DNA of 64,000 nt, taken from positions 1-64,000 of IMG/VR virus record IMGVR_UViG_3300046535_001092; one strand, written 5' to 3'. Both the position numbers and the translations under genes were made by a program. The first letter of the stretch is position 1. Each line of letters opens with the position of its first letter. Source of the DNA: a virus. This document shows, piece by piece, positions 6,110 through 52,418 of the stretch. Under the pieces are notes generated by a model. That model was not told the origin of the DNA. It ran no database searches and saw only the letters and a list, made by a program, of their open reading frames with translations.

Positions 6110-7057
6110 TTACGGAGCCTGCGAGATAACTGCTAGACGTGACTTGTTATTGGTCACGAACTGTAGTGCAGAGTAGATCTTGAACACGAATGCGTTCTGA
6201 TCTGGGATCTCGATGGTGTTACCCTTGTCGCGGAAGTACTGCTTCGAGCAGACTAGGTTGTACGACTTGGGGTTGAGGAAGTAGATCTTGTCTGCACCGT
6301 ACTGAGAGTAGACATAGCGGCTGGTCTTGAACGCGAGGACCTTGAAGCCTGCGTCGGCTTCGCTGGTGTCGTTGAACCGCTGTAGGGTCTGTAGCTGCGA
6401 CTCGTAGAGAGCCTGAGCTGTTGCACCCGAGATTAGGAACTTAGGTGCGAGAGTTGACCCGCTACCCTTTGCCGCTGTATCCCACGCTGTTGTCATTGTG
6501 GCTTCGATATCAGTTGCATCGGTGTATGTGGTTGCGTAGTTTCTCCACCATGTTTCCACGGCTGAGTCGATGGCTCCGACAACGCCCTGACCTGTGGTAG
6601 GTACTAGGTTGTCTAGACCCTGGAGTTCGTCTCCACCTGCAGTCGAGGTTGTGAAGATGTTGCGCTCGATGAGGTCGTCATGGGTATTGATTGCATTCTC
6701 AAGGATCTGCTTGACTAGTGCAATCTTCTGGTTCTCGGAGGGGTTCTTTGCGTCATCGCCCTTGGTCCAGACCACGGGAACTGAAAGCTGAGCAACTGGG
6801 TAAGATGCCGAGGTGACTACGATTGTCTTTAGGAGCGAAGCCGTGTCCTGGTCTGAGGCGAGGATGGCTGCGTCTGGGTTCGGACGGTAGTCTAGGGGTG
6901 CTTCGATGTGGTCGCCTAGTGAGACACGAGTAACGGCGCCCTGGCGCTCTAGTTCTCGCATTGCGGCAGACTCAACCCACTGGTTGGCAGCCTTTCTCAT
7001 CTCCGCTAGAACAGCTGGGTAGCTGACTGCGACAATCTGTTCAATATCTAATGCCAT
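6110..7057 (-). CDS. Major capsid protein (HK97 fold, PaP3/LUZ24-like podovirus type)
   Basis: 315 aa; follows scaffold and portal; GL..L..GVVGAID...WWRN, AGF..L.F, IYFLN motifs. Confidence 0.85.
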   Translation of the reverse strand: MALDIEQIVAVSYPAVLAEMRKAANQWVESAAMRELERQGAVTRVSLGDHIEAPLDYRPNPDAAILASDQDTASLLKTIVVTSASYPVAQLSVPVVWTKGDDAKNPSENQKIALVKQILENAINTHDDLIERNIFTTSTAGGDELQGLDNLVPTTGQGVVGAIDSAVETWWRNYATTYTDATDIEATMTTAWDTAAKGSGSTLAPKFLISGATAQALYESQLQTLQRFNDTSEADAGFKVLAFKTSRYVYSQYGADKIYFLNPKSYNLVCSKQYFRDKGNTIEIPDQNAFVFKIYSALQFVTNNKSRLAVISQAP

Positions 7058-7515
7058 GTGTGTAGGTACCTATAGAAAAAGGGTTGTTAAAGGTTAACTT
7101 TTGGCTCATTGACGGGGAGTAGAACCCGATAGTTGAACTTTTAACCCTAGTTCTAGGGCACTAACAAGGAAGGACTCGGTCGCAAGCTACTCGCTATGGT
7201 TGGCTTTGGCTATATTAACGTCCCGTACCGAGGGAAGGACGAAGAGATTATCTAAACAGGGTTCCCTGTCTATTGAAGCAGGTTAGCAGCCTTTAGCCGG
7301 GTATGCCGGTCTACCCACTGATCAGTTTAGATAAGGTGGCGGTCCATCCCCGGCAAGCCGCCGTTCCAGCATCCCTTTCGGGACCGGATATGGCAAACCA
7401 AGGATGGGCCATATAAAATTTGTTCACTGTAACCCGGTGAGGGGGCGGTAAAGGCTTTATCGGGTGGGGTTTGGGTGATAAAGCCCGTACCTGGAGGAAG
7501 GAGGAGGGGGAGCTT
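7058..7515 (-). ncRNA. Long structured 5' leader or ncRNA upstream of MCP
   Basis: No credible ORF; multiple inverted repeats (TTATCTAAAC/GTTTAGATAA, GGCTTTATC/GATAAAGCC, GGTCCATCC/GGATGGGCC); directly downstream of a promoter. Confidence 0.55.
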
Positions 7516-7520
7516 TATAC

Positions 7521-7549
7521 ATAGTAGCACATCTAGTACTAAATGTCAA
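7521..7549 (-). promoter_or_regulatory. Sigma70-type promoter for the capsid leader
   Basis: Minus strand TTGACA-17 nt-TACTAT with extended TGn. Confidence 0.75.
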
Positions 7550-7571
7550 GTCCCCTACCATTAGGAGTGTG

Positions 7572-8642
7572 TTATTTGAGGGTCTGCACCTGCTCTGTGA
7601 TGATATCCTCTAGACTACGATTGCCCTTAGACTGCGAGGGGGATGGTCTTGAGGCTGAGGTGGGGGCTGAGGTGGAGGTTGGGGCAGCCTTGAGTTCTGC
7701 AAGGACCTTCTTACGGGTTGCAGTCTCGACTTCCTTGACCTTCTTGTCGAATTCTGCCTGGGCTGAGGCTAGCTTCGGTAGGACTACGCGGCGGTAGGCT
7801 CCTTCTAGAGAGAGGCGTCCGTCATGCTGCAAGGCTCGGACGATGTCGCCTTCGTTCTCGTTGAAGTGGGGCCACCGACGGGCTTCATCGATCTCGGCCT
7901 GGACTTTGGGAATGAGCTGCTGAACCTGCTGATGGGCACGATACTCCTGCTCGATTGGACCGAAACGTTTGTCCACTTCCTGGAGGGTTTCCTGGCGGGC
8001 TTGCATGCGATTCCAGGCGTTGAGGGCCTTGAGTCCGTCCATGGAGTAGACCATGGAGCCATCTGAGAGGCGCTGGTCGGGCTGAGGCATGTCGTCTACG
8101 ACTGGGCCTATGGGCTGCTGTGTCTGGACTACTGGGGGCTGGGCTGCTGCCTGGGATTGTGAGGCGATGGCCTGGAAGATCTCCCGATAGGCTGGGATGG
8201 TTGCTAGCATCTCTAGGAATCGCTGAGGATCGTTGGCTAGAACCTGCTCGAACTGGGCTACCTTTGTTAGTCTACCTTCGTAGTCCTTGACCTTAGCCTC
8301 ATATTGGTCGAGCTGGGGCTTGTAGGTGGACTCGACCTCCTTGGCCTGGCGTTCAACGATCTTCTTGACGCGTGAGTAGGGGATCCTGTTCTCACGGCCT
8401 GGGGAAGACTGGGAGGGGATACCGAACTTCTTGGAGAACTCGTCTTCCTCCTTAGGCTCGGCTGCCTGGGCTACAGGAGAGGCGGCTTCGGGAGCTGGGT
8501 CAGGGGTAGGAGTGTCGGAGAGAGAGGCATCTGGGGCAGCCTCGACGGTTTCAGGGGTATCTGAGGAGGTGTCGTCGGCTGGGGTGACGGCATCTTCAAT
8601 GGAGCCTGTGATGACGTCTTCGAGGTCGATTGGGTCTGACAT
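7572..8642 (-). CDS. Capsid scaffolding protein
   Basis: Acidic disordered N-terminus, RIPYSRVK motif, long helices; lies between portal and MCP. Confidence 0.75.
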   Translation of the reverse strand: MSDPIDLEDVITGSIEDAVTPADDTSSDTPETVEAAPDASLSDTPTPDPAPEAASPVAQAAEPKEEDEFSKKFGIPSQSSPGRENRIPYSRVKKIVERQAKEVESTYKPQLDQYEAKVKDYEGRLTKVAQFEQVLANDPQRFLEMLATIPAYREIFQAIASQSQAAAQPPVVQTQQPIGPVVDDMPQPDQRLSDGSMVYSMDGLKALNAWNRMQARQETLQEVDKRFGPIEQEYRAHQQVQQLIPKVQAEIDEARRWPHFNENEGDIVRALQHDGRLSLEGAYRRVVLPKLASAQAEFDKKVKEVETATRKKVLAELKAAPTSTSAPTSASRPSPSQSKGNRSLEDIITEQVQTLK

Positions 8643-12633: not shown

Positions 12634-14055
12634 TTACTTGACGCTCTCACTGCCGAGAGTAAACTTCTGTCCACGCTTCTCTCTCATCCAGGGACGCATA
12701 GGTGAGCCACCTGAGCCTGGGCCACGACGTTCCATGGAGGATGAGGAGATGAGGAAGTAGGCGAGGGCTACGACTGCATGGTCTTCCTTGTGATCTGCCA
12801 TAGCAAGGGGACGCTTGGGATTGTAGCGCATCTGTGGGATGGTCTTGACGAGGTAGGGACAGCCGTCACGACCGTGGTTGTAGATTTGTAGGCGGGGGAG
12901 ACTATCACCAGCTTCTTCGGCCAAGGCAGTGTGGACGGCAGCGGCGAACATCTCCCTATCGTTAATGGACTTTTCCATGGGAATTCCACAGGCTTCGTAC
13001 ATATCCTTGATAGTACGGATATCAGCGGTGGTATTGATGTCCATTGTGGGGTCACAGTAGGTAATAGCGACTCGTTTGACCCCGAGTTGGTGGTCGATTT
13101 CCTTGATTTCCTCTGCAATCTCTGAGGCAACCTTCTTATACCAGAGCTTTTCGTGAAAGACGATGTAACGGTTGCCGAGATGGGCGATCCAGAGGCAGAT
13201 TGTGGGGTCGGGGAACCATCCAGCATCGATTGCACGGTAGACAGTGGCATGTTTGAGGAGGGTTTCTAGGTCAATGTCGGGGATTACGTGGTAGGGTTTG
13301 CCCATGTTGGTGGGATGGAAGTCAAAGAGGGCATTCTCGAGGACGAATTCTCCATCTACCCAGGCCTTACGGACGTGTGCAGCGAGACCAGCGAACCTCT
13401 TGCGGTATTGGACAGCATCGATGGCGAGGTTATCCTCAAGGTTTGCGTGGATGGCGTACCAATCCTCAGGATTGTAGTCCATATCCTCTTCAGGATCGAC
13501 GTCTTTGGCTACGAAGTACTGGAGGACTTGGGATGCAGAGGGTCCGAGGGGGTTAGTAGCCGCCCTAACCATTGCAGTAAGGCCAGATCCCTTGGTGACT
13601 CGCACCGAAGCTGCAAGTTTAGTGAACATATCCCACTCGAAGGTGGAGAGTTCGTCGAATCCCATCCAGGCGAATTCAGTTGATAGGAGATTGAGGACAT
13701 CGGCGTCTGATTGACAATGAGAGAACCAGCCAGTAGAACCATTAGGATACCTTGCAATGTGTTTGGTGGAGTTATAGGTACCACCGATTGCCTTCATCTC
13801 TCTGGGAACGTGGATGAGGTGGGACTTTTCTAGCTCAGGGAAGGTACGACGGAGGATGAGGTAGCGGAATCCTGGGTGGGAAAGCGCACGCATGTGGGCA
13901 TCCCATCGGAGGGCCTCGCTTTTGCCTGAACCTCGGCCTCCCCAGAAGAGTACGTTAGGTTCCTGGCGGGAGTGGAACTCTAACTGCTTGGGGAATGGAG
14001 TGTAGAGGATCTTCTCAACTCCTAGGTCGTCAGTGATTATGATGGAGTTACTCAT
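12634..14055 (-). CDS. terL: Terminase large subunit
   Basis: Walker A GGRGSGKS, LRRTFPEL, Walker B FDEL, ATNP, nuclease IDAG..DPT..DH. Confidence 0.92.
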   Translation of the reverse strand: MSNSIIITDDLGVEKILYTPFPKQLEFHSRQEPNVLFWGGRGSGKSEALRWDAHMRALSHPGFRYLILRRTFPELEKSHLIHVPREMKAIGGTYNSTKHIARYPNGSTGWFSHCQSDADVLNLLSTEFAWMGFDELSTFEWDMFTKLAASVRVTKGSGLTAMVRAATNPLGPSASQVLQYFVAKDVDPEEDMDYNPEDWYAIHANLEDNLAIDAVQYRKRFAGLAAHVRKAWVDGEFVLENALFDFHPTNMGKPYHVIPDIDLETLLKHATVYRAIDAGWFPDPTICLWIAHLGNRYIVFHEKLWYKKVASEIAEEIKEIDHQLGVKRVAITYCDPTMDINTTADIRTIKDMYEACGIPMEKSINDREMFAAAVHTALAEEAGDSLPRLQIYNHGRDGCPYLVKTIPQMRYNPKRPLAMADHKEDHAVVALAYFLISSSSMERRGPGSGGSPMRPWMREKRGQKFTLGSESVK

Positions 14056-14401
14056 CTTCCTTCTCCACATCTATCACATTAACTGCTGGTAGCTCCTTAG
14101 GCTTCTCTATGCCACCGATCTTGAAACCAATATTGATGGATGGACCGATTCTATTCTGGTCTACCTGCTTAGGTTTGTCGACTGAGATGTCTACCATGGT
14201 CACCCCATCCTCATTAGGCATGTGTTCTATGAGAAAGGAGGTAGCCTTATTAGCTGTCTCATGATCCTTATTAGCCATAGCTGCCCGAGCATTCTCCATA
14301 TGGAGTTCGAACACCTCCATAGCTCTCTCCATGATGGCCTCTCTAGCCTCCCTAACCTTGGAGAAGAAAGGATTCTTAATAGGTTCCTTATGGATAGCCA
14401 T
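14048..14401 (-). CDS. Putative terminase small subunit
   Basis: Small helical protein directly upstream of and overlapping terL. Confidence 0.5.
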   Translation of the reverse strand: MAIHKEPIKNPFFSKVREAREAIMERAMEVFELHMENARAAMANKDHETANKATSFLIEHMPNEDGVTMVDISVDKPKQVDQNRIGPSINIGFKIGGIEKPKELPAVNVIDVEKEDE

Positions 14402-14604
14402 TACTTCTTACCTTCCTGGTCACTCATAGCGGGCTTCTTTGGGCCTGATGCATGCACTTGAGGTTTCCTTAGGGAGATAGCAAGCTTGTCTAATTGGGAT
14501 TTAAAAAATTCTAAAAGGAGGTCAGACATTGGAAAGGGGGTGGGGGGTCGAAGGCGGGCCGAGATTGAGACTGAGAGGAGGGATGTACCTAATTTGTAAT
14601 GCGT

Positions 14605-14633
14605 AGTATAACACAAGCATGCCAATAAGTCAA
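14605..14633 (-). promoter_or_regulatory. Sigma70-type promoter of packaging/structural operon
   Basis: Minus strand TTGACT-17 nt-TATACT with extended TGn. Confidence 0.7.
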
Positions 14634-14700
14634 GTCTTATCTACTGTTTAGGGTATAATTAGGTCATTTAGCTATATACTTGGTCCCGCCCCGCCCGCCG

Positions 14701-14780
14701 AACGGACACAGGCGTACTCCAACGGACACGGGCCGACATAGGCGCACCCTAACGGACACCATATGACACCACCCGCCACG
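14701..14780. repeat. Phased degenerate 10-bp tandem repeats (AACGGACAC consensus)
   Basis: aacggacaca/ggcgtactcc/aacggacacg/ggccgacata/ggcgcaccct/aacggacacc/atatgacacc/acccgccacg. Confidence 0.7.
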
Positions 14781-15482
14781 ATGTCCGTCTGGCGACCATA
14801 GCCTGCCAGTGTGACTGCCGAGCTAACCCATAGTAGGCGTGAGACTTACGCCGAACGGACTAGCAGCCCGATATGACAGCGCCGACGCCGGCCAATGTGA
14901 CAAGACTGTGAAAACAGGGGGATCTACCTACTTCGGGGTATAGACAGACTATTCAATCCGCCATAGGCTGAGCACTCGGTCGGGCAAGACGGCGGCAAGG
15001 TCGCCAAGGCAAGCCAGCAAGACAAGCGGTTGACAACCGGAGCGCAGAAGGGGCAAGTCGATTACCTTCCGCCAAATACCACGATGGATAGCAGCACGAA
15101 GGGCCGAGAGCCGGACGGATACGGGAGCCTTCTCCTCATCGCCAGCCGCCTCTAAGCGCCTAACTTCCCCCATAGGGACGCCAGACAGATCAGCCTCTTT
15201 TCAGCGTCTAGGGCCAACGACGACGCCATGCACCGCGCACCGACTGTGACAACCGACCGACTAGCTAGCGGCGGGAACCCTACAGCGGACACGGCAAGCG
15301 GCCTCTAACATCGCCCTAGCCTGCAACAACGCGCAACTCTACCCAGTGGCCTACCCTATCGGGCTAAGTTCACTAACGCGGAATATGCCGATGCCGGATA
15401 CCACGCTCCGGCCTTTCGTCCTGCTACCCATCCCCATGTAAGCGCCTCATAGGGCCGTCTAAGGTTCGACCTGGAGCAACCA

Positions 15483-15716
15483 ATGGACCGAACCAAGACG
15501 TTAAGCAGCCTGCCCCCTGCCGAACTTCCCATGCAGCTAGACAGCGCCTCACACAACATTGACGAATATCTACACAGCACACCGAAAGCCGGACAAACCA
15601 TCGGAGAGATCGTCCGCATGGCACAACCGGCAATCGTCGCCTTGCAGATCCTTCGCGGCGAACTGGACGTAACCGACGCACGGATCACCCTAGAACGCGC
15701 AGAGAGACAACAGTAA
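15483..15716 (+). CDS. Hypothetical protein (GC-rich segment)
   Basis: GGAG RBS; protein-like helical sequence. Confidence 0.5.
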   Translation: MDRTKTLSSLPPAELPMQLDSASHNIDEYLHSTPKAGQTIGEIVRMAQPAIVALQILRGELDVTDARITLERAERQQ

Positions 15717-15777
15717 ACACTTGAGATCCTTAGACGGTCGTATCAGTCGCTTACATGGACATAACATGAGACCCCGG

Positions 15778-15807
15778 TTGACACGCCAGCCGGGACGGAG
15801 CTACAGT
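15778..15807 (+). promoter_or_regulatory. Sigma70-type promoter
   Basis: TTGACA-18 nt-TACAGT. Confidence 0.55.
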
Positions 15808-15892
15808 CCGCAAGTCGGCCACGGCATCCCGCCGAGCCGAGCGCAACCGAGCCGGGACCACGGACCCCGGCACTTGATAGGAGTTAGTTATT

Positions 15893-16426
15893 ATGGCTGG
15901 AGAAGTAGCGCGACAGATGGCCGCGACCCCCTTGCAGAAGGACGAAGCCGCCAAGCCGGAAGCCAAGACAGAGAAGAATCCGATCTTCGCCTTGCTTGGA
16001 CGCCCGAAGATCGTAGCAGGACCGGGAACCCGCTACGCGCGGACGGAAGGATGGGGCAAGGACAAGAAACCCCACCGGGACGGCGGAACCAACGAGACAA
16101 TCGCTTTCGCCGTGTTCACGCCGTTTAAGGGCTTGGAATTGCCCCTTGTCGCCACGGTCTACTGCGAACGCTTCACCGCAACTGTTACCGAAGGCGGGAA
16201 AACGGTTGTCAAGAATCGTCGCAAGCTGAACGTGTCGATTCCGTTCCTGAAGCCTGAGAAGCGCGACGGGGACGGCAACAAGGCAGCGGCGCTGGCAAAG
16301 GCGGAAATCGAAACCATGTTCCGCAACTGGGAAAAGACCACGGACCCCACCGAACGCGCCAAGGGGACCGCATCCAGCTCCGACGCCGGAGAGGATGACC
16401 CCGACGCGCCGACCGCAACCGAGTAA
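15893..16426 (+). CDS. Hypothetical early protein with acidic tail
   Basis: AGGAG RBS, own promoter and terminator, high-GC3 codons. Confidence 0.7.
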   Translation: MAGEVARQMAATPLQKDEAAKPEAKTEKNPIFALLGRPKIVAGPGTRYARTEGWGKDKKPHRDGGTNETIAFAVFTPFKGLELPLVATVYCERFTATVTEGGKTVVKNRRKLNVSIPFLKPEKRDGDGNKAAALAKAEIETMFRNWEKTTDPTERAKGTASSSDAGEDDPDAPTATE

Positions 16427-45264: not shown

Positions 45265-45293
45265 TTGACATCTGTGGATGGTCGTGCTATCGT
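45265..45293 (+). promoter_or_regulatory. Sigma70-type promoter of replication module
   Basis: TTGACA-17 nt-TATCGT with extended TGn. Confidence 0.6.
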
Positions 45294-46834: not shown

Positions 46835-47983
46835 ATGGGGGATAAAGTATTGGAAATAAAGCAGCTTAGGCTATATTCTAAGTCAAGTGTTGGGGTGGAT
46901 TGGACCTGTCCTCGTAAGTACTACTATAACTATGAGTATGAAGGTAAGGGGATTGTCTCGCATAGTACGTCTTTGCAGTTATTCACTGGTACTAGCTTGC
47001 ATGATGGGCTGGCTGCTATTGCACTACAGCACATGGCTGGCTCTGTGGATATCGATCTTATTGGTGAGACTGCTCGGCAGCAGATGCTTGAGGCCCTCCT
47101 TCCTAAGACCCAAGGTGAAGTAGATGGTGAGGAATTTGCTATGGAGCAAGCTGCCCTTGTAGAGGGTCTCCTTAGGGGATTCTATTTGCATGCATGGCCC
47201 TTACTTATGCAGCAGTATCCTAATATTAAGATGCTTGAACAGCCCCTTGTGTATAAGCATGACGGGGTAGGGATGATGGCTAAACCAGACATTGTCCTCT
47301 CAGATAACGATGGAATCAATGTCTATGTCGAATATAAGTCTACGTCTAGTAAGAAAGATACATGGATTAATAGCTGGGATACTGCTATCCAGCTCCATTC
47401 TACTGTCAAAGCTATTGAAGCAAAGTTAGGAGAGAAGGTTGAAAGTGTCATTGTCCAAGGGCTTTATAAGGGTTATGAAAGCTACGGTAAGCAATCGTCT
47501 CCGTTCTGCTACGCATACAAACGCAACGGTAACCCTCCATTCACGCAGGATCAATACGAGTATGCTTACAAGGCCGGGTTCAAGCGGTACCCGACGTGGC
47601 AGCTTCCAGGCGGAGTGAAGGAGTGGGTGGAGACTATGCCCTCCCACGTCTTAGCTGAACAGTTCCCTCAAACTCCTCCTATCTTCATCAATGAACCATT
47701 GATTGAGGCCTTCTTTAAGCAGAGAGCCATCAGGGAACATGAGATTCTTACTGCCTCCCAACTTATGGAGAAGTATAAGGATGATCCTGGTCAGGTCCAA
47801 TACGAACTTGATAGAGTCTTCCCGCAGAAGTTTGACCAATGTCGTCCATCCTTTGGCTCCCCCTGCTCCTACCTTAAGTTGTGTCATGGGAGTGTGCAGG
47901 ATCCTATCGCACAGGGCTACAGTTGGAGAGACACCGAGCATCAGAGTGAGTTTAGAAAGATTGCAGAAGGGATGACAGACTAA
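46835..47983 (+). CDS. PD-(D/E)xK exonuclease (RecB/Cas4-like)
   Basis: CPRKYY, GTSLHDGL, KPDIV, VEYKST, QL, C-terminal C..C..C. Confidence 0.8.
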   Translation: MGDKVLEIKQLRLYSKSSVGVDWTCPRKYYYNYEYEGKGIVSHSTSLQLFTGTSLHDGLAAIALQHMAGSVDIDLIGETARQQMLEALLPKTQGEVDGEEFAMEQAALVEGLLRGFYLHAWPLLMQQYPNIKMLEQPLVYKHDGVGMMAKPDIVLSDNDGINVYVEYKSTSSKKDTWINSWDTAIQLHSTVKAIEAKLGEKVESVIVQGLYKGYESYGKQSSPFCYAYKRNGNPPFTQDQYEYAYKAGFKRYPTWQLPGGVKEWVETMPSHVLAEQFPQTPPIFINEPLIEAFFKQRAIREHEILTASQLMEKYKDDPGQVQYELDRVFPQKFDQCRPSFGSPCSYLKLCHGSVQDPIAQGYSWRDTEHQSEFRKIAEGMTD

Positions 47984-47984
47984 G

Positions 47985-48470
47985 ATGCCTACTATTGCAG
48001 AGCTATTTACTGTAGGGTTTCCTGCAGTTCTTCAAAATATGAAGGGTGGAAGGAGATGGGTTGACCGTGACCTAGAGGCCCTCCAACAGCGTGGGAGAAT
48101 CCTCCTCCTGCATCATCTAGGTATTCATGTAGAGCTATATAATGATAGGGGACCTAATAGAATCTATCCAATAGTAGAAGTTAGAGTCCCTATTGTGTGG
48201 ACTAAGAGGGATGACAATCAGACTGATAATGAGATTATCAGTCTTACCGCTCGGCTAATTGAGAATGGTATACACTCCCATGATGATATCCTCCTGGAGA
48301 GAATTAGGAATCATAGGGCATATGTAGCTGAGCAATATCGCTACATGATCTCTCAACCTGTAGAGGTTGAGGGTACTAATGGAGGTATTATGTGCATGCT
48401 ATCTACAGCTGCAGCCTTTGTCCCAGATGAGACCTCCCTAGACATACCAGAAGAATTTGAGGATTACTAA
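47985..48470 (+). CDS. Internally deleted paralog of the major capsid protein
   Basis: Collinear matches to MCP 6110-7057: PAVL, WV, LG.H.E, YP..VP.VWTK.DD, EN.I..HDD, QY. Confidence 0.8.
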   Translation: MPTIAELFTVGFPAVLQNMKGGRRWVDRDLEALQQRGRILLLHHLGIHVELYNDRGPNRIYPIVEVRVPIVWTKRDDNQTDNEIISLTARLIENGIHSHDDILLERIRNHRAYVAEQYRYMISQPVEVEGTNGGIMCMLSTAAAFVPDETSLDIPEEFEDY

Positions 48471-48772
48471 TGTCACCAAACCGTAACTATATCGCAGGGA
48501 GAGCGTTTGAGTATAAGATCATGGCTCAATGGAAGGCTAAAGATAATATTGTCATGCGAACTGCTGGCAGTCATGGGCCTTTTGACGTTATTGCTATTGA
48601 CCCAGGACATGTTTGTACCCTGATCCAATGCAAAAGGGTCGCTAAGATGGGTCAGGCTAATGCTCTTATTGAGAAGTGGAAGACCAATCCCCCTATCAAA
48701 CAGGGGAACTATCATTTGTGTCTGGAGGTATATGTGAGTGAGGATAGGGAGCAGATGAGGGTGGTGCTATGA
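48470..48772 (+). CDS. Holliday junction resolvase (Hjc-like)
   Basis: GRAFEY, RTAGSHGPFDVIA, LIQCK. Confidence 0.85.
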   Translation: MSPNRNYIAGRAFEYKIMAQWKAKDNIVMRTAGSHGPFDVIAIDPGHVCTLIQCKRVAKMGQANALIEKWKTNPPIKQGNYHLCLEVYVSEDREQMRVVL

Positions 48773-48814: not shown

Positions 48815-49768
48815 ATGTCTTGGTTACTGGAATTGATGGTGAGGAGTCAGATGTTTAAGTTTATTATGAGTAGAGTTGGGTTAGAAGTGTTGGGTGGGGT
48901 TGCGGCTACTGTGTTAGGTGTGTGGCTACACTCCCACTTTGGACCTGTTGCTATGCAGGTTGTGCAGACCACTCCCACAGTTCAGACAGTGTATGTGGAT
49001 AGACCTACTATTGACACTAAGGTGGTTAATCAGGTAGTGAAGGACCCTAAGGAACAGGCTATCATTAAGGAACTATTGTCAGAGAATAGGGCTTTGAAGG
49101 TGACTGTTACCACACTTACTGATACTGTGGCTGAGCTTAAACAGACAGGCGGGACTACGAATGGTGGGGTGATTACCCCTGTTCCAGTGGACACTGCTGC
49201 AACAGAACCACTTCCTGCCCATCCCCTGTTCAACTTTAAGGATTGGCAGTTATCAGCCACCTATAATGATATTCAGTTTAGTTACACTCTAGATCAGAAG
49301 TTTCATATCATCTCCACAACTGGTAGGGAGGTTGATGGTAGGAAGGTTAGTATTGTACAGTTGTTCCAGGAGGGGCCTAATGGGGAGAGGCTAGCTATCC
49401 CGGCCACCACTACAGCCATTCAGTCTGACCTAACTACTAACCATTGGATGTTCAATCCTAGAATCCAGGGTGGATTGGCTCTTACCTTTAAGGATAAAGT
49501 TAATGAGGCAGGTGGAATCGTAGGCCTACAGTGGCTCAAGTATGGTAAGGGATCATCTGCCGAGGATGTCTCCCTCTCTCTGCTCACACCTACAGTGTTC
49601 CTGTCTAAGTCTATTAGGGAGCTAGGGGTTATGCCTATCTCATATAATCTAGGTCAACTCCCTCATCAGCCCTTCACCAACTTGTGGGTATCCCCATATA
49701 TCGGTGTAGTGGATAGCGGGGGTGTGGATATTAGTAGGGTTGGTGTGGTGCTAAGTGCTACATTCTAA
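48815..49768 (+). CDS. Membrane-anchored protein with coiled coil and C-terminal beta region
   Basis: N-terminal TM helix, coiled segment, amphipathic strands ending in F. Confidence 0.55.
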   Translation: MSWLLELMVRSQMFKFIMSRVGLEVLGGVAATVLGVWLHSHFGPVAMQVVQTTPTVQTVYVDRPTIDTKVVNQVVKDPKEQAIIKELLSENRALKVTVTTLTDTVAELKQTGGTTNGGVITPVPVDTAATEPLPAHPLFNFKDWQLSATYNDIQFSYTLDQKFHIISTTGREVDGRKVSIVQLFQEGPNGERLAIPATTTAIQSDLTTNHWMFNPRIQGGLALTFKDKVNEAGGIVGLQWLKYGKGSSAEDVSLSLLTPTVFLSKSIRELGVMPISYNLGQLPHQPFTNLWVSPYIGVVDSGGVDISRVGVVLSATF

Positions 49769-50235: not shown

Positions 50236-50265
50236 TTGACCCCCTAGCATGCGATGTGCTATAAT
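50236..50265 (+). promoter_or_regulatory. Sigma70-type promoter for protease cassette
   Basis: TTGACC-18 nt-TATAAT with extended TGn. Confidence 0.65.
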
Positions 50266-50301
50266 ATAGGTCTTTCGTTAACCTTAAGGAGATAGCTAAG
50301 A

Positions 50302-50628
50302 ATGAAGAAACTGTTTGTTATGTTGATGTTACTGGTAAGCACAGCTGTATGTGCTCAAAGTATGGTCGTTACTGGAAAGGTTACAAACCTAGTCGCTGTA
50401 GCAGTAACTACAGCCGAGGGAGATCAGGTTATTGAGACAGATGTTACAGTTGTCGATTCTAAGGGGAAGGGTACTACATTTAGGGTTAGAGGAGGAGATC
50501 TGAATGGCCTAACCTTAAGAGCTAGTTACGAACAGGTTCCCAAGAAGGGCGAGAATATGAAAGTTCACCTTGCTATGAAGAACGGTCACTATAGACTAGA
50601 GCATGGTCAACAGAGTGTGGAGAAGTAA
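50302..50628 (+). CDS. Secreted small beta protein coupled to metalloprotease
   Basis: Signal peptide MKKLFVMLMLLVSTAVCA; TAATG coupling to next gene. Confidence 0.7.
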   Translation: MKKLFVMLMLLVSTAVCAQSMVVTGKVTNLVAVAVTTAEGDQVIETDVTVVDSKGKGTTFRVRGGDLNGLTLRASYEQVPKKGENMKVHLAMKNGHYRLEHGQQSVEK

Positions 50629-51761
50629 TGTTTAAGAAACTACTACCGATTGCTATGCTCCTAAGCTGTGTCGTTGGGCTTGGGGCTTATGTCTCAAATG
50701 GTGTATTTTGGCCCAATGTTCCTGTAAAGTATTATATTAATACGGCTAATACTTCAGGAATGAATCCTGCCACAGTTGTCTCAGATATTCAGGCAGGAGG
50801 TAATGCTTGGGCTACACAGGCTAGCTCAGGTGCTACCCTATCTTATCAAGGTACAACAAGTGATCCTTGCACATTTGCTTATGATCAGAAGAATCATGTG
50901 TGCTTTAGGGTAGATTCTGGTGGGTGGATTGCTTATACCCAAATCTACACATTCACTGGTCAGACAGCTATTCTTGATGCTGATATGATTGTGAACACTA
51001 CCTATCCATTATTTACAGATGATCAACAATGTAATGGTGGATATTCTATTAAGAATACAGTTACACATGAGTTTGGACATCTGTTTGGTCTAGGTCACTC
51101 AGCTGATCCTACAGCTACAATGTATCCTACTGCTAATGCTTGTGAGACAAGCAAAGAGGTGCTATCAGCCGATGATATTGCTGGTATCCTTTCTCTATAC
51201 CCTACAGCTGGACCTCCTCCACCTGCTGCACCAGTCTTAACCTCTGTTTCTCCATCTAGTGGCGCTCAGGGTACTACAGTTCCAGTAACATTGAGTGGTT
51301 CTAACTTTGTTATTAGTGGGACCTCTCCAAATATTAGTGGTAGTGGAGTTACATTTAGCAATATTGTAGCAAATAACACTACATCTATGACGGCTAACTT
51401 TGTGATTAGCTCAGCAGCAGTTGCAGGTGCAAGAACAGTCACTGTAACCACATCAAGTGGAACGAGTGGAACACAGCCATTTACAGTCACGGTTCCTCCT
51501 CCACCATCTGCTCCAGCTACCCCATCTAACCCCTCACCTGCCAACATGGGTACGGTTAGACATAACTCCAACACTACTCTCACATGGGTTGCTGCGGGAG
51601 CTACCAGATACACAGTTGTACTTGATGGAGTTGCCCACGCAGTCACCCCCGCCAGTTATAAGGCCGGTAAGGTTAGCGTAGGAGTACATACATGGTCAGT
51701 TACAGCTACTAATAACACTGGTAGCACGAATGGTCCAACCTGGACATTTACATCTAACTAA
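50628..51761 (+). CDS. Secreted matrixin (M10) metalloprotease with IPT/TIG and Ig-like domains
   Basis: Signal peptide; HEFGHLFGLGHS; Met-turn ATMYP; LSADDIAG; PVLTSVSPSSG..VTLSGSNF. Confidence 0.9.
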   Translation: MFKKLLPIAMLLSCVVGLGAYVSNGVFWPNVPVKYYINTANTSGMNPATVVSDIQAGGNAWATQASSGATLSYQGTTSDPCTFAYDQKNHVCFRVDSGGWIAYTQIYTFTGQTAILDADMIVNTTYPLFTDDQQCNGGYSIKNTVTHEFGHLFGLGHSADPTATMYPTANACETSKEVLSADDIAGILSLYPTAGPPPPAAPVLTSVSPSSGAQGTTVPVTLSGSNFVISGTSPNISGSGVTFSNIVANNTTSMTANFVISSAAVAGARTVTVTTSSGTSGTQPFTVTVPPPPSAPATPSNPSPANMGTVRHNSNTTLTWVAAGATRYTVVLDGVAHAVTPASYKAGKVSVGVHTWSVTATNNTGSTNGPTWTFTSN

Positions 51762-52418
51762 GGAACCTAGGGAGTTAAATGTTCACCTTAAATAATCTAT
51801 TGATTGTGTTAGCTGTTCTAGGGATTATCTACTTATTCCGTAGACTCTAACTTCTTATGTATGGTCGTGTGAGGACCCCCCACTGGGGGTGATACCTCTC
51901 AAACCATGGGGCTAAATGCCCTGGACGACCCCGGAGGTACTGAGACCCTCCACCTATTGTGTCCCCAACCTCTTGCACCACGAGGGGTTGGGGATTGTTA
52001 TTTGTGGGCAGATCGTGGTAAGATTGGAGAGTGAAAATGAGCAAGGTTCCTGAGGTCCTCCCCACCTTCTTAGTGAAGGCTATGTGGAGAGCGACAGCGA
52101 TTAAAATGAAGGTAGTAGCTAAGGATGAAGAGGATGCTTGGGACAAGGCTGCGAAACTTGTAAAGAAGATGGAAGGGGGAAGTTCTTGTATAGAGATAAA
52201 GGTAATGGGGACGATCTAGCACAAACTCCAATCACCTTAGGGTTTATGGTTGCTATTGAAACTACAATTCTTGACTCAGAGAGGGTCATTGCTGAAGTAG
52301 TAAGCCAAGCTATTATGAAAGAGTTTGGTTTGAGAGGTATTGATATTAAGAGTCTAGATGTAGCTGAACTCGGTCCAATTGATTGTTATAATGATGACGA
52401 ATTAGATGAAGAGGATGA

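Follow-up and report, generated by a model that had tools for sequence, protein, structure and literature searches.

Mini-MCPs: an undescribed family of A-domain-less paralogues of the major capsid protein in large soil and groundwater phages, about half of them with predicted Tat export signals

The plus-strand gene at positions 47985..48470 of the window (the whole stretch of viral DNA analysed here, i.e. positions 1-64,000 of a complete virus record that is 97,163 bp long and has direct terminal repeats) encodes an intact, diverged, collinear and doubly deleted paralogue of the major capsid protein (MCP) of the same phage, which we refer to as the “mini-MCP”. Mini-MCPs are an undescribed family of old MCP paralogues that belong to a clade of soil and groundwater phages of roughly 90-107 kb; they are predicted to keep the N-arm, a stub of the E-loop, the spine helix and the P-domain sheet of the HK97 fold, without the A-domain and the tip of the E-loop, and about half of them carry what appears to be a canonical twin-arginine (Tat) export signal. 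Since this is a family of reduced capsid proteins, about half of which bear export signals, the capsid fold seems to have been reused in a non-capsid job; our literature search found no paper on an A-domain-less or exported MCP paralogue. The two paralogous genes of the window and the structural elements of the mini-MCP are the following:

47985..48470, plus strand: mini-MCP gene, 161 aa plus stop, assigned by homology to the MCP
6110..7057, minus strand: MCP gene, 315 aa, a full-length HK97-fold major capsid protein; the mini-MCP derives from the lineage of this paralogue
47994..48089, plus strand: N-arm helices, aa 4-20 and 28-35, aligned to MCP 5-37 (model secondary structure and hhalign)
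48099..48203, plus strand: shortened E-loop hairpin and P-domain strand, aa 39-73, ending in the family-invariant P69..W72
48225..48305, plus strand: spine helix, aa 81-107, with the motif TEN.KI.LV..L.EN.I.SHDD common to the MCP
48312..48425, plus strand: C-terminal P-domain strands, aa 110-147, aligned to MCP 267-304 (hhalign E 1.2e-9; two-piece HMM matches)
48426..48467, plus strand: acidic tail DETSLDIPEEFEDY, 14 residues with a net charge of -7, modelled with low confidence

The full-length paralogue is an established type of capsid protein: it matches the major head protein family phrog_9953 (E 8e-30) and is Mx8-like by tblastn, its nearest named relatives being the capsid proteins of Myxococcus phage Mx8 and Stenotrophomonas phage BUCT555. 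An earlier note on this DNA had given the coordinates and lengths of both genes correctly, and had exchanged the owners of the peptides that it quoted: VGFPAVLQNM, for instance, belongs to the mini-MCP and VSYPAVLAEM to the MCP.

The collinear alignment of the two proteins that the note had described is borne out by BLASTP (E 3e-17, 32% identity), which places residues 4-106 of the mini-MCP on MCP 5-132 with a 23-residue gap; the Smith-Waterman score of this N-terminal match is 156, against 29.9 +/- 4.3 for 1000 shuffled controls (z = 29). The weaker C-terminal match that was also claimed is not significant in pairwise comparison (E 1.7; z 0.37), and it stands at the profile level, where hhalign places residues 111-149 from the C-terminus of the family on residues 267-304 from that of the MCP clade with a probability of 96.4% and E 1.2e-9; for the N-terminal part, the corresponding value is E 1e-29, and the N-arm is the best-conserved part that the mini-MCP and the MCP have in common. 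The HMM of the mini-MCP family also matches the MCP gene of the window as two collinear pieces, at 6653-7069 (E 4e-31) and 6146-6262 (E 2e-6); both pieces recur in 7 related virus records, while in 3 more only the N-terminal piece rises above the threshold. On the BLASTP and profile alignments, the mini-MCP consists of MCP 2-52, 81-134 and 267-304, followed by the 14-residue acidic tail. MCP residues 53-80 (28 residues, the tip of the E-loop) have no counterpart, and the junction at aa 107-110 stands in for the approximately 132 residues of MCP 135-266, i.e. the A-domain; the missing segments had been estimated beforehand at about 61-84 and 135-265, close to these boundaries. The added acidic tail was likewise rightly noticed, coming directly after the MCP-like part; it is rare in the family, where most members do without it.

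The structure of the mini-MCP was modelled with AlphaFold2 on the alignment of the family (pLDDT 94.5, pTM 0.86), as the single sequence gave a pLDDT of only 31. The model consists of two N-terminal helices, a short hairpin, a long strand, a 27-residue helix and two more strands. In an exhaustive structural comparison with 48,161 PDB representatives, the top 50 matches are all HK97-fold capsid or encapsulin chains: the best reach Z 10.1 (PDB ID: 2e0z), 9.7 and 8.6, HK97 prohead I reaches Z 8.0, between 111 and 148 of the 161 residues are aligned, and the matched ranges of the capsid chains jump across the A-domain. Foldseek, which had been proposed as the check together with AlphaFold, returned nothing at E <= 0.001 from either the PDB or BFVD; above this threshold, encapsulins and HK97 chains lead the PDB list and a few capsid proteins occur in the BFVD list, so an exhaustive aligner was needed to make the fold match. 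The model agrees with what the note had anticipated from HK97 topology, namely an N-arm, a spine helix and a P-domain sheet without A-domain or E-loop tip.

The mini-MCP would be unable to build capsomers, because the A-domain, which forms the penton and hexon rings, is missing, and it would thus be a soluble module; a prediction of its complex with the MCP (score 0.05) speaks neither for nor against an association of the two. It is homologous to an established MCP, and it falls short of a capsid subunit in that it has no A-domain and a truncated E-loop, is encoded outside the head cluster, and is absent from one complete relative (G002).

The family was collected by an exhaustive HMMER search of 1.84 billion representative sequences, which yielded at least 107 sequence clusters with both deletions. 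Its 107 representatives at E <= 1e-3 are all 103-260 aa long and most are aligned over residues 3-148, with no full-length MCP among them; neither the mini-MCP of the window nor 65 of its relatives match a Pfam or PHROG family. Residues P69 and W72 are nearly invariant among the 107 representatives, S115 and T141 are nearly invariant in the 65-member alignment, the HDD motif and the motifs in common with the MCP are kept, and the spacing across the A-domain junction is identical in most members. The family is therefore a conserved group of intact ORFs and the mini-MCP is not a decaying fragment; the note's view of an intact, diverged ORF held up, with the same deletions found in at least 107 clusters, which speaks against neutral decay. 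In a tree of 44 well-aligned mini-MCPs and 18 MCPs, all mini-MCPs lie on one side of a branch with SH-aLRT 100, and since they form this single supported group, we consider them to have arisen once and long ago, the mini-MCP of the window not being a recent copy of its phage's own MCP; the common deletion boundaries also speak for one origin of the family. This 62-row tree was used in place of a 124-row tree rooted by Mx8 and BUCT555, of which the rooting failed (outgroup branch 3.7).

The nearest relative of the mini-MCP of the window is only about 40% identical to it. Searches of GenBank phages with tblastn and megablast gave no relatives, a search of IMG/VR for related loci found none with the mini-MCP or with the family members P0005 and P0007, and sequence searches of the ESM Atlas and the PDB gave no usable lead for the mini-MCP or for g317, a neighbouring gene described below. 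Some relatives depart from the common architecture. The one in G009 (L129:1456-1776, minus strand), of 106 aa, has only the N-arm and the spine helix, without the C-terminal strands, and its acidic end (..DFGEYDE), which contains aromatic residues, is reminiscent of the tail of the mini-MCP of the window; P0087 (260 aa) has an extra C-terminal stretch that resembles part of the MCP A-domain (..AGFKVLEV..) and may therefore be an intermediate or a truncated MCP; and P0060 (249 aa) has a second N-arm-like segment (..LRELERSGAIQRVNF..) after the domain.

Many members of the family extend beyond the domain at the N-terminus. The extension is at least 22 aa long in 62 of the 107 representatives, and 49 of the 107 have a pair of arginines among their first 20 residues; the logo reads [N/T]-R-R-x-F-[L/I]-K, after which come a hydrophobic stretch, in many cases a proline, and an AxA-type site. 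Curated short Tat models match only weakly (among 12 members, TIGR01409 in 2, at E 0.038, and PF10518 in 1, at E 0.017), so the assignment rests on inspection of the motif. In approximately 42 members, among them those of the window and of a second complete genome (G001), the protein begins at the domain itself, with M-P-x-I; the mini-MCP of the window begins with MPTIAELF and thus lacks the Tat motif, and because an in-frame stop lies 4 codons upstream of its ATG, it has no signal peptide.

On the tree, the mini-MCPs that adjoin the MCP branch bear the signal, and signal-bearing forms are basal and widespread. At least 2 switches of the signal are forced by strongly supported branches, with 8 occurring on the best tree, which suggests an exported ancestor and repeated loss of the signal; because 49 of the 107 representatives have a Tat signal and the members nearest to the MCPs are signal-bearing, the original workplace of the family was most likely outside the cytoplasm. 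The mini-MCP of the window looks like a form that has lost the signal and gained the acidic tail. Only one member with the Tat form, P0005, could be tied to a phage genome, through a contig size of 90,120 bp that is the same as that of the MCP P0204; the gene neighbourhoods that we compared cover three full-length mini-MCPs, all signal-less.

In the window, the mini-MCP gene lies 41 kb from the head-morphogenesis cluster, on the opposite strand and among replication genes, the last two points being as the note had observed; the plus-strand genes around it encode a helicase, a ParB_N protein, an exonuclease, a Sak4-like annealing protein and a DNA polymerase. Its surroundings include the following features:

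45265..45293, plus strand: promoter-like site TTGACA-17-TATCGT, 5' of the helicase gene, a consensus match, the number of such sites equalling the shuffle expectation
46835..47983, plus strand: PD-(D/E)XK (Cas4-like) exonuclease, directly 5' of the mini-MCP gene
48470..48772, plus strand: small PD-(D/E)XK / Hjc-like resolvase candidate, below the Pfam cut-off, its ATG overlapping the mini-MCP stop
48815..49768, plus strand: g317, with a membrane anchor at the N-terminus, then a coiled coil and a beta-rich domain whose end, ..SATF, resembles that of outer-membrane proteins; no Pfam family

The tight coupling that had been reported between the exonuclease and resolvase genes is seen on both sides: 2 nt separate the exonuclease stop from the ATG of the mini-MCP, and the TAA of the latter overlaps the next ATG (TAATG). 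The promoter-like site 5' of the helicase gene, the best one in these surroundings, is the likely start of a unit made of the genes for the helicase, the ParB_N protein, the exonuclease, the mini-MCP, the Hjc-like protein, g317 and g150.

A homologue of g317 is found directly 5' of the mini-MCP homologue in G001 (L107 3232-4146) and about 0.5 kb upstream of it in the metagenome locus L071, and it is absent from G002, which has no mini-MCP; since L141 and L142 carry a g317 homologue without a mini-MCP within 5 kb downstream, a two-gene module remains a lead and the linkage is only suggestive. Downstream, positions 50236-51995 hold a self-contained unit with a strong promoter-like TTGACC-18-TATAAT (50236-50265) and a terminator with a 15-bp stem (51961-51995). 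This promoter-like site leads g108 (50302-50628) and g377 (50628-51761), both with Sec-type signal peptides, the second, which also has a TIG domain and Pro-rich linkers, being a matrixin-like zinc metalloprotease (Peptidase_M10, E 7e-15); it is unusual for a phage replication region to encode a secreted protease. With the membrane anchor of g317 and the Sec signals of the g108/g377 pair, the neighbours of the mini-MCP would fit an envelope theme.

Other observations concern the exonuclease gene and the layout of the window. In several relatives (G001 L140:3-1919; L057, L063, L069), an insert of about 250 codons splits the exonuclease gene; in the 638-aa ORF of G001, a LAGLIDADG_3 domain (E 1.6e-5) lies between the two halves of the nuclease, which suggests an intein with a homing endonuclease, and the exonuclease of the window has no such insert. 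In the minus-strand region, approximately 510 bp of non-coding DNA (7058-7571) separate the MCP gene from a scaffold-like gene (7572-8642). GC skew is positive on the plus strand in 31 of 32 two-kb windows (the exception being 14001-16000), and coding switches from the minus strand (1-14.4 kb, structural genes) to the plus strand despite this uniform skew.

The mini-MCP is present in the complete genomes G000 (that of the window) and G001 (98,575 bp, with a signal-less mini-MCP); the third, G002 (99,793 bp), carries the MCP and lacks both the mini-MCP and g317. The gene is therefore accessory, occurring in two of the three complete relatives. The MCP is 70-86% identical across many metagenome contigs of 60-107 kb and the exonuclease is 53-64% identical across the same clade; soil and groundwater are the sources of the metagenome loci retrieved with the exonuclease. 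Among 69 exonuclease-centred metagenome loci, the mini-MCP occurs in one (L071, a frameshifted contig); in the relatives, the exonuclease gene directly abuts the Hjc-like gene or is followed by other genes, and the mini-MCP is not found at this junction, so that the stretch from the exonuclease to Sak4 can be regarded as a variable region.

Between G000 and G001, the mini-MCPs are 30-34% identical, and each of the five shared neighbouring genes compared is better conserved, namely Sak4 (64%), g192 (58%), the exonuclease (45-50%), Hjc (40%) and g317 (36-40%); the identity of the MCPs is 73.5%. A scan of GTDB found MCP homologues in three MAG genomes and the mini-MCP in none of them, nor was it found in a sample of 400 more genomes from the phylum to which G017 belongs (Acidobacteriota). 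An MCP homologue of the more distant subgroup (L152/L159, G017:C1:1981043-1981195) is located within an Acidobacteriota MAG, on a contig of 4.07 Mb; it probably represents a prophage and gives a clue to the hosts of the wider capsid group. G014, of the same subgroup, is labelled as a provirus in IMG/VR.

Our tentatively preferred reading, which we hold at somewhat under an even chance, is that the mini-MCP is a putative binding module that serves in conflicts, either with other phages or with the host, and not in building the phage's own head. The ancestral mini-MCP would have folded in the cytoplasm and then been exported by the Tat pathway to the periplasm; the form in the window, having lost the signal and acquired the acidic tail, would stay in the cytoplasm, and would be expressed together with the genes for replication and recombination, either before the structural operon or separately from it. 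As a soluble domain it would offer only the surfaces of the N-arm, the spine helix and the P-domain, and may bind a partner that would otherwise attach to the same surfaces of a capsid, the candidates being, for example, the scaffold or the ejected internal proteins of a superinfecting relative or, alternatively, a host envelope factor. Among the considerations against this reading are that the motifs in common with the MCP may be a fold-stabilising core and not a kept binding surface, and that the position in a replication and recombination operon, together with the acidic tail, would also fit a role in DNA metabolism. A narrower version of the binding module, which we regard as quite improbable in its specifics, is that mini-MCPs are capsid-surface mimics for exclusion, which would trap the scaffold or ejected proteins of an incoming relative and block delivery or assembly; the mini-MCPs would be positioned, by Tat export or in the cytoplasm, where the proteins of the incoming phage appear, and scaffold and ejected internal proteins may pack on the N-arm, the spine helix and the P-domain.

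A part in the assembly of the phage's own head is unlikely, given that the mini-MCP is dispensable, diverges much more rapidly than the MCP and is predicted to leave the cytoplasm in roughly half of the family. Such a part would consist in binding the scaffold or the MCP through the N-arm and the P-domain, as a timer, chaperone or size regulator. Scaffolding proteins dock at the N-arm in P22-like and 80alpha-like phages, and it is the N-arm that the mini-MCP has best conserved with the MCP; the window also has a separate scaffold-like gene, of 356 aa, upstream of that of the MCP. A complete relative, G002, does without the mini-MCP, and the gene lies outside the structural module; exported forms cannot meet procapsids in the cytoplasm, and an identity of 30-34% for the mini-MCP, against 73.5% for the MCP, is unexpected for a partner that has to fit a conserved protein.

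The earlier note had proposed a decoy, i.e. a non-assembling capsid mimic, made early, that occupies or pre-triggers host defences which recognise capsids; we find this quite unlikely. The mini-MCP of the window is predicted to be cytoplasmic, lacking a signal, and to share a transcript with early or middle genes, whose strand is opposite to that of the structural operon; sequence motifs of the genuine MCP are retained in its N-arm and P-domain, and it is accessory and diverges rapidly, which is typical of counter-defence genes. The defence proteins Avs7, Avs8 and Avs10 have been reported to grip the penton- and hexon-forming face of the A-domain, in contrast to Lit and CapRel, which read short motifs (bioRxiv 10.64898/2026.01.04.697583). 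The proposal is weakened because the face bound by the three Avs proteins is the one that the mini-MCP lacks (bioRxiv 10.64898/2026.01.04.697583), and because about half of the family, and probably its ancestor too, would be exported from the cytoplasm. Moreover, an identity of 32% to the phage's own MCP makes a poor mimic of the short linear motifs read by Lit and CapRel, and the mini-MCP belongs to an old paralogue lineage and is no recent copy of that MCP; binding to an abortive-infection sensor would also be expected to trigger it rather than block it, unless the mini-MCP is an inert competitor. For the signal-less copy of the window, a decoy of motif-type sensors that see the N-arm or the P-domain is conceivable.

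An accessory role in replication or recombination, in which the tail (..DIPEEFEDY) recruits the exonuclease, the resolvase or the polymerase and the capsid-derived body is a mere scaffold, is very unlikely. We liken the acidic, aromatic-ended tail, on our own assumption, to the C-terminal tails of SSB or T7 gp2.5. The translational coupling between the exonuclease and Hjc-like genes fits this role, as do the charge of -7 of a tail that is rare in the family and the similarly acidic and aromatic end of the 106-aa variant of G009; what speaks against it is that most family members have no such tail and that the position is not conserved, the exonuclease gene abutting that of Hjc in relatives, where the mini-MCP follows g317.

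It is very improbable that the mini-MCP acts as a poison subunit, one that co-assembles with, or caps, the capsid proteins of a related phage in the same cell and thereby ruins its heads. The contact surfaces of the P-domain and the N-arm are kept, the ring-forming domain is gone and the gene is accessory and variable, all of which would suit a poison; the phage's own, closely related MCP would be endangered as well, and exported forms cannot work in this way. That the gene is a functionless remnant of a capsid-gene duplication is barely credible, its absence from one complete relative being outweighed by 107 diverged clusters of intact ORFs with conserved core positions and a confidently predicted compact fold, by the maintained translational coupling, and by signal peptides that appear to have been repeatedly remodelled and not left to decay.

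Several known systems resemble the mini-MCPs in part. With the Mx8-type HK97-fold MCPs (phrog_9953), they have in common a homologous N-arm, spine helix (E 1e-29) and C-terminal P-domain strands (E 1.2e-9), and the motifs VW(T/S)xxD(D/E), TEN.KI.LV and ENxIxSHDD; unlike these MCPs, they are of half the length, lack the A-domain (about 132 aa) and the E-loop tip (about 28 aa), lie outside the structural module, are accessory and often carry an export signal, and have no PHROG or Pfam match of their own. T4 gp24 is, like the mini-MCP, a diverged duplicate of the MCP of the same genome (gp23), and its structure is among the matches of our model (PDB ID: 1yue, Z 5.8); it is a full-length fold that builds vertices, whereas the mini-MCP would form no capsomer rings and is encoded outside the head-gene cluster. 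The exclusion proteins T5 Llp, TP-J34 Ltp and P22 SieA are small, accessory, fast-evolving and envelope-targeted phage proteins, and our best guess would place the exported mini-MCPs in the same functional class, a putative assignment that is based on accessory status, divergence and predicted export; unlike the mini-MCPs, these are Sec-exported lipoproteins or membrane proteins and not Tat substrates, have no kinship with them in sequence or fold, and are not derived from capsids. The Family 4 or “A-domain encapsulins” (DUF1884 / PF08967, PDB ID: 2PK8) consist of the A-domain only (Andreas & Giessen 2021, PMC8346489). They too are natural HK97-fold proteins that have shrunk to between about a third and half of the size and serve outside virus capsids, but they are cellular, occurring in enzyme operons of hyperthermophilic archaea and some Bacteroidetes, while the mini-MCPs are phage-borne and often Tat-signalled; the mini-MCP is the reciprocal truncation, having kept all but the A-domain, and has no match to DUF1884 or to Pfam.

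The HK97 fold is the commonest protein building block of viruses. To our knowledge, its known reuses, i.e. encapsulins, gene transfer agents and satellites, all still form shells, and we know of only one radical truncation of it, to the A-domain alone. The mini-MCPs are a natural, conserved and phage-borne family with the other half of the fold, about half of which appears to be export-signalled; as an A-domain-less module that is predicted to fold, they offer a natural test of which parts of the HK97 fold are autonomous, which bears on its proposed origin by domain insertion. They are also a concrete candidate for a capsid-derived weapon or shield in the conflicts of phages and, if the reading as exclusion mimics is true, would represent a new principle of phage-phage exclusion, drawn from the phage's own capsid gene. 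Approximately 100 unannotated clusters can now be named, and even if the function turns out to be mundane, the annotation of a “hypothetical protein” that recurs in large soil and groundwater phages is corrected.
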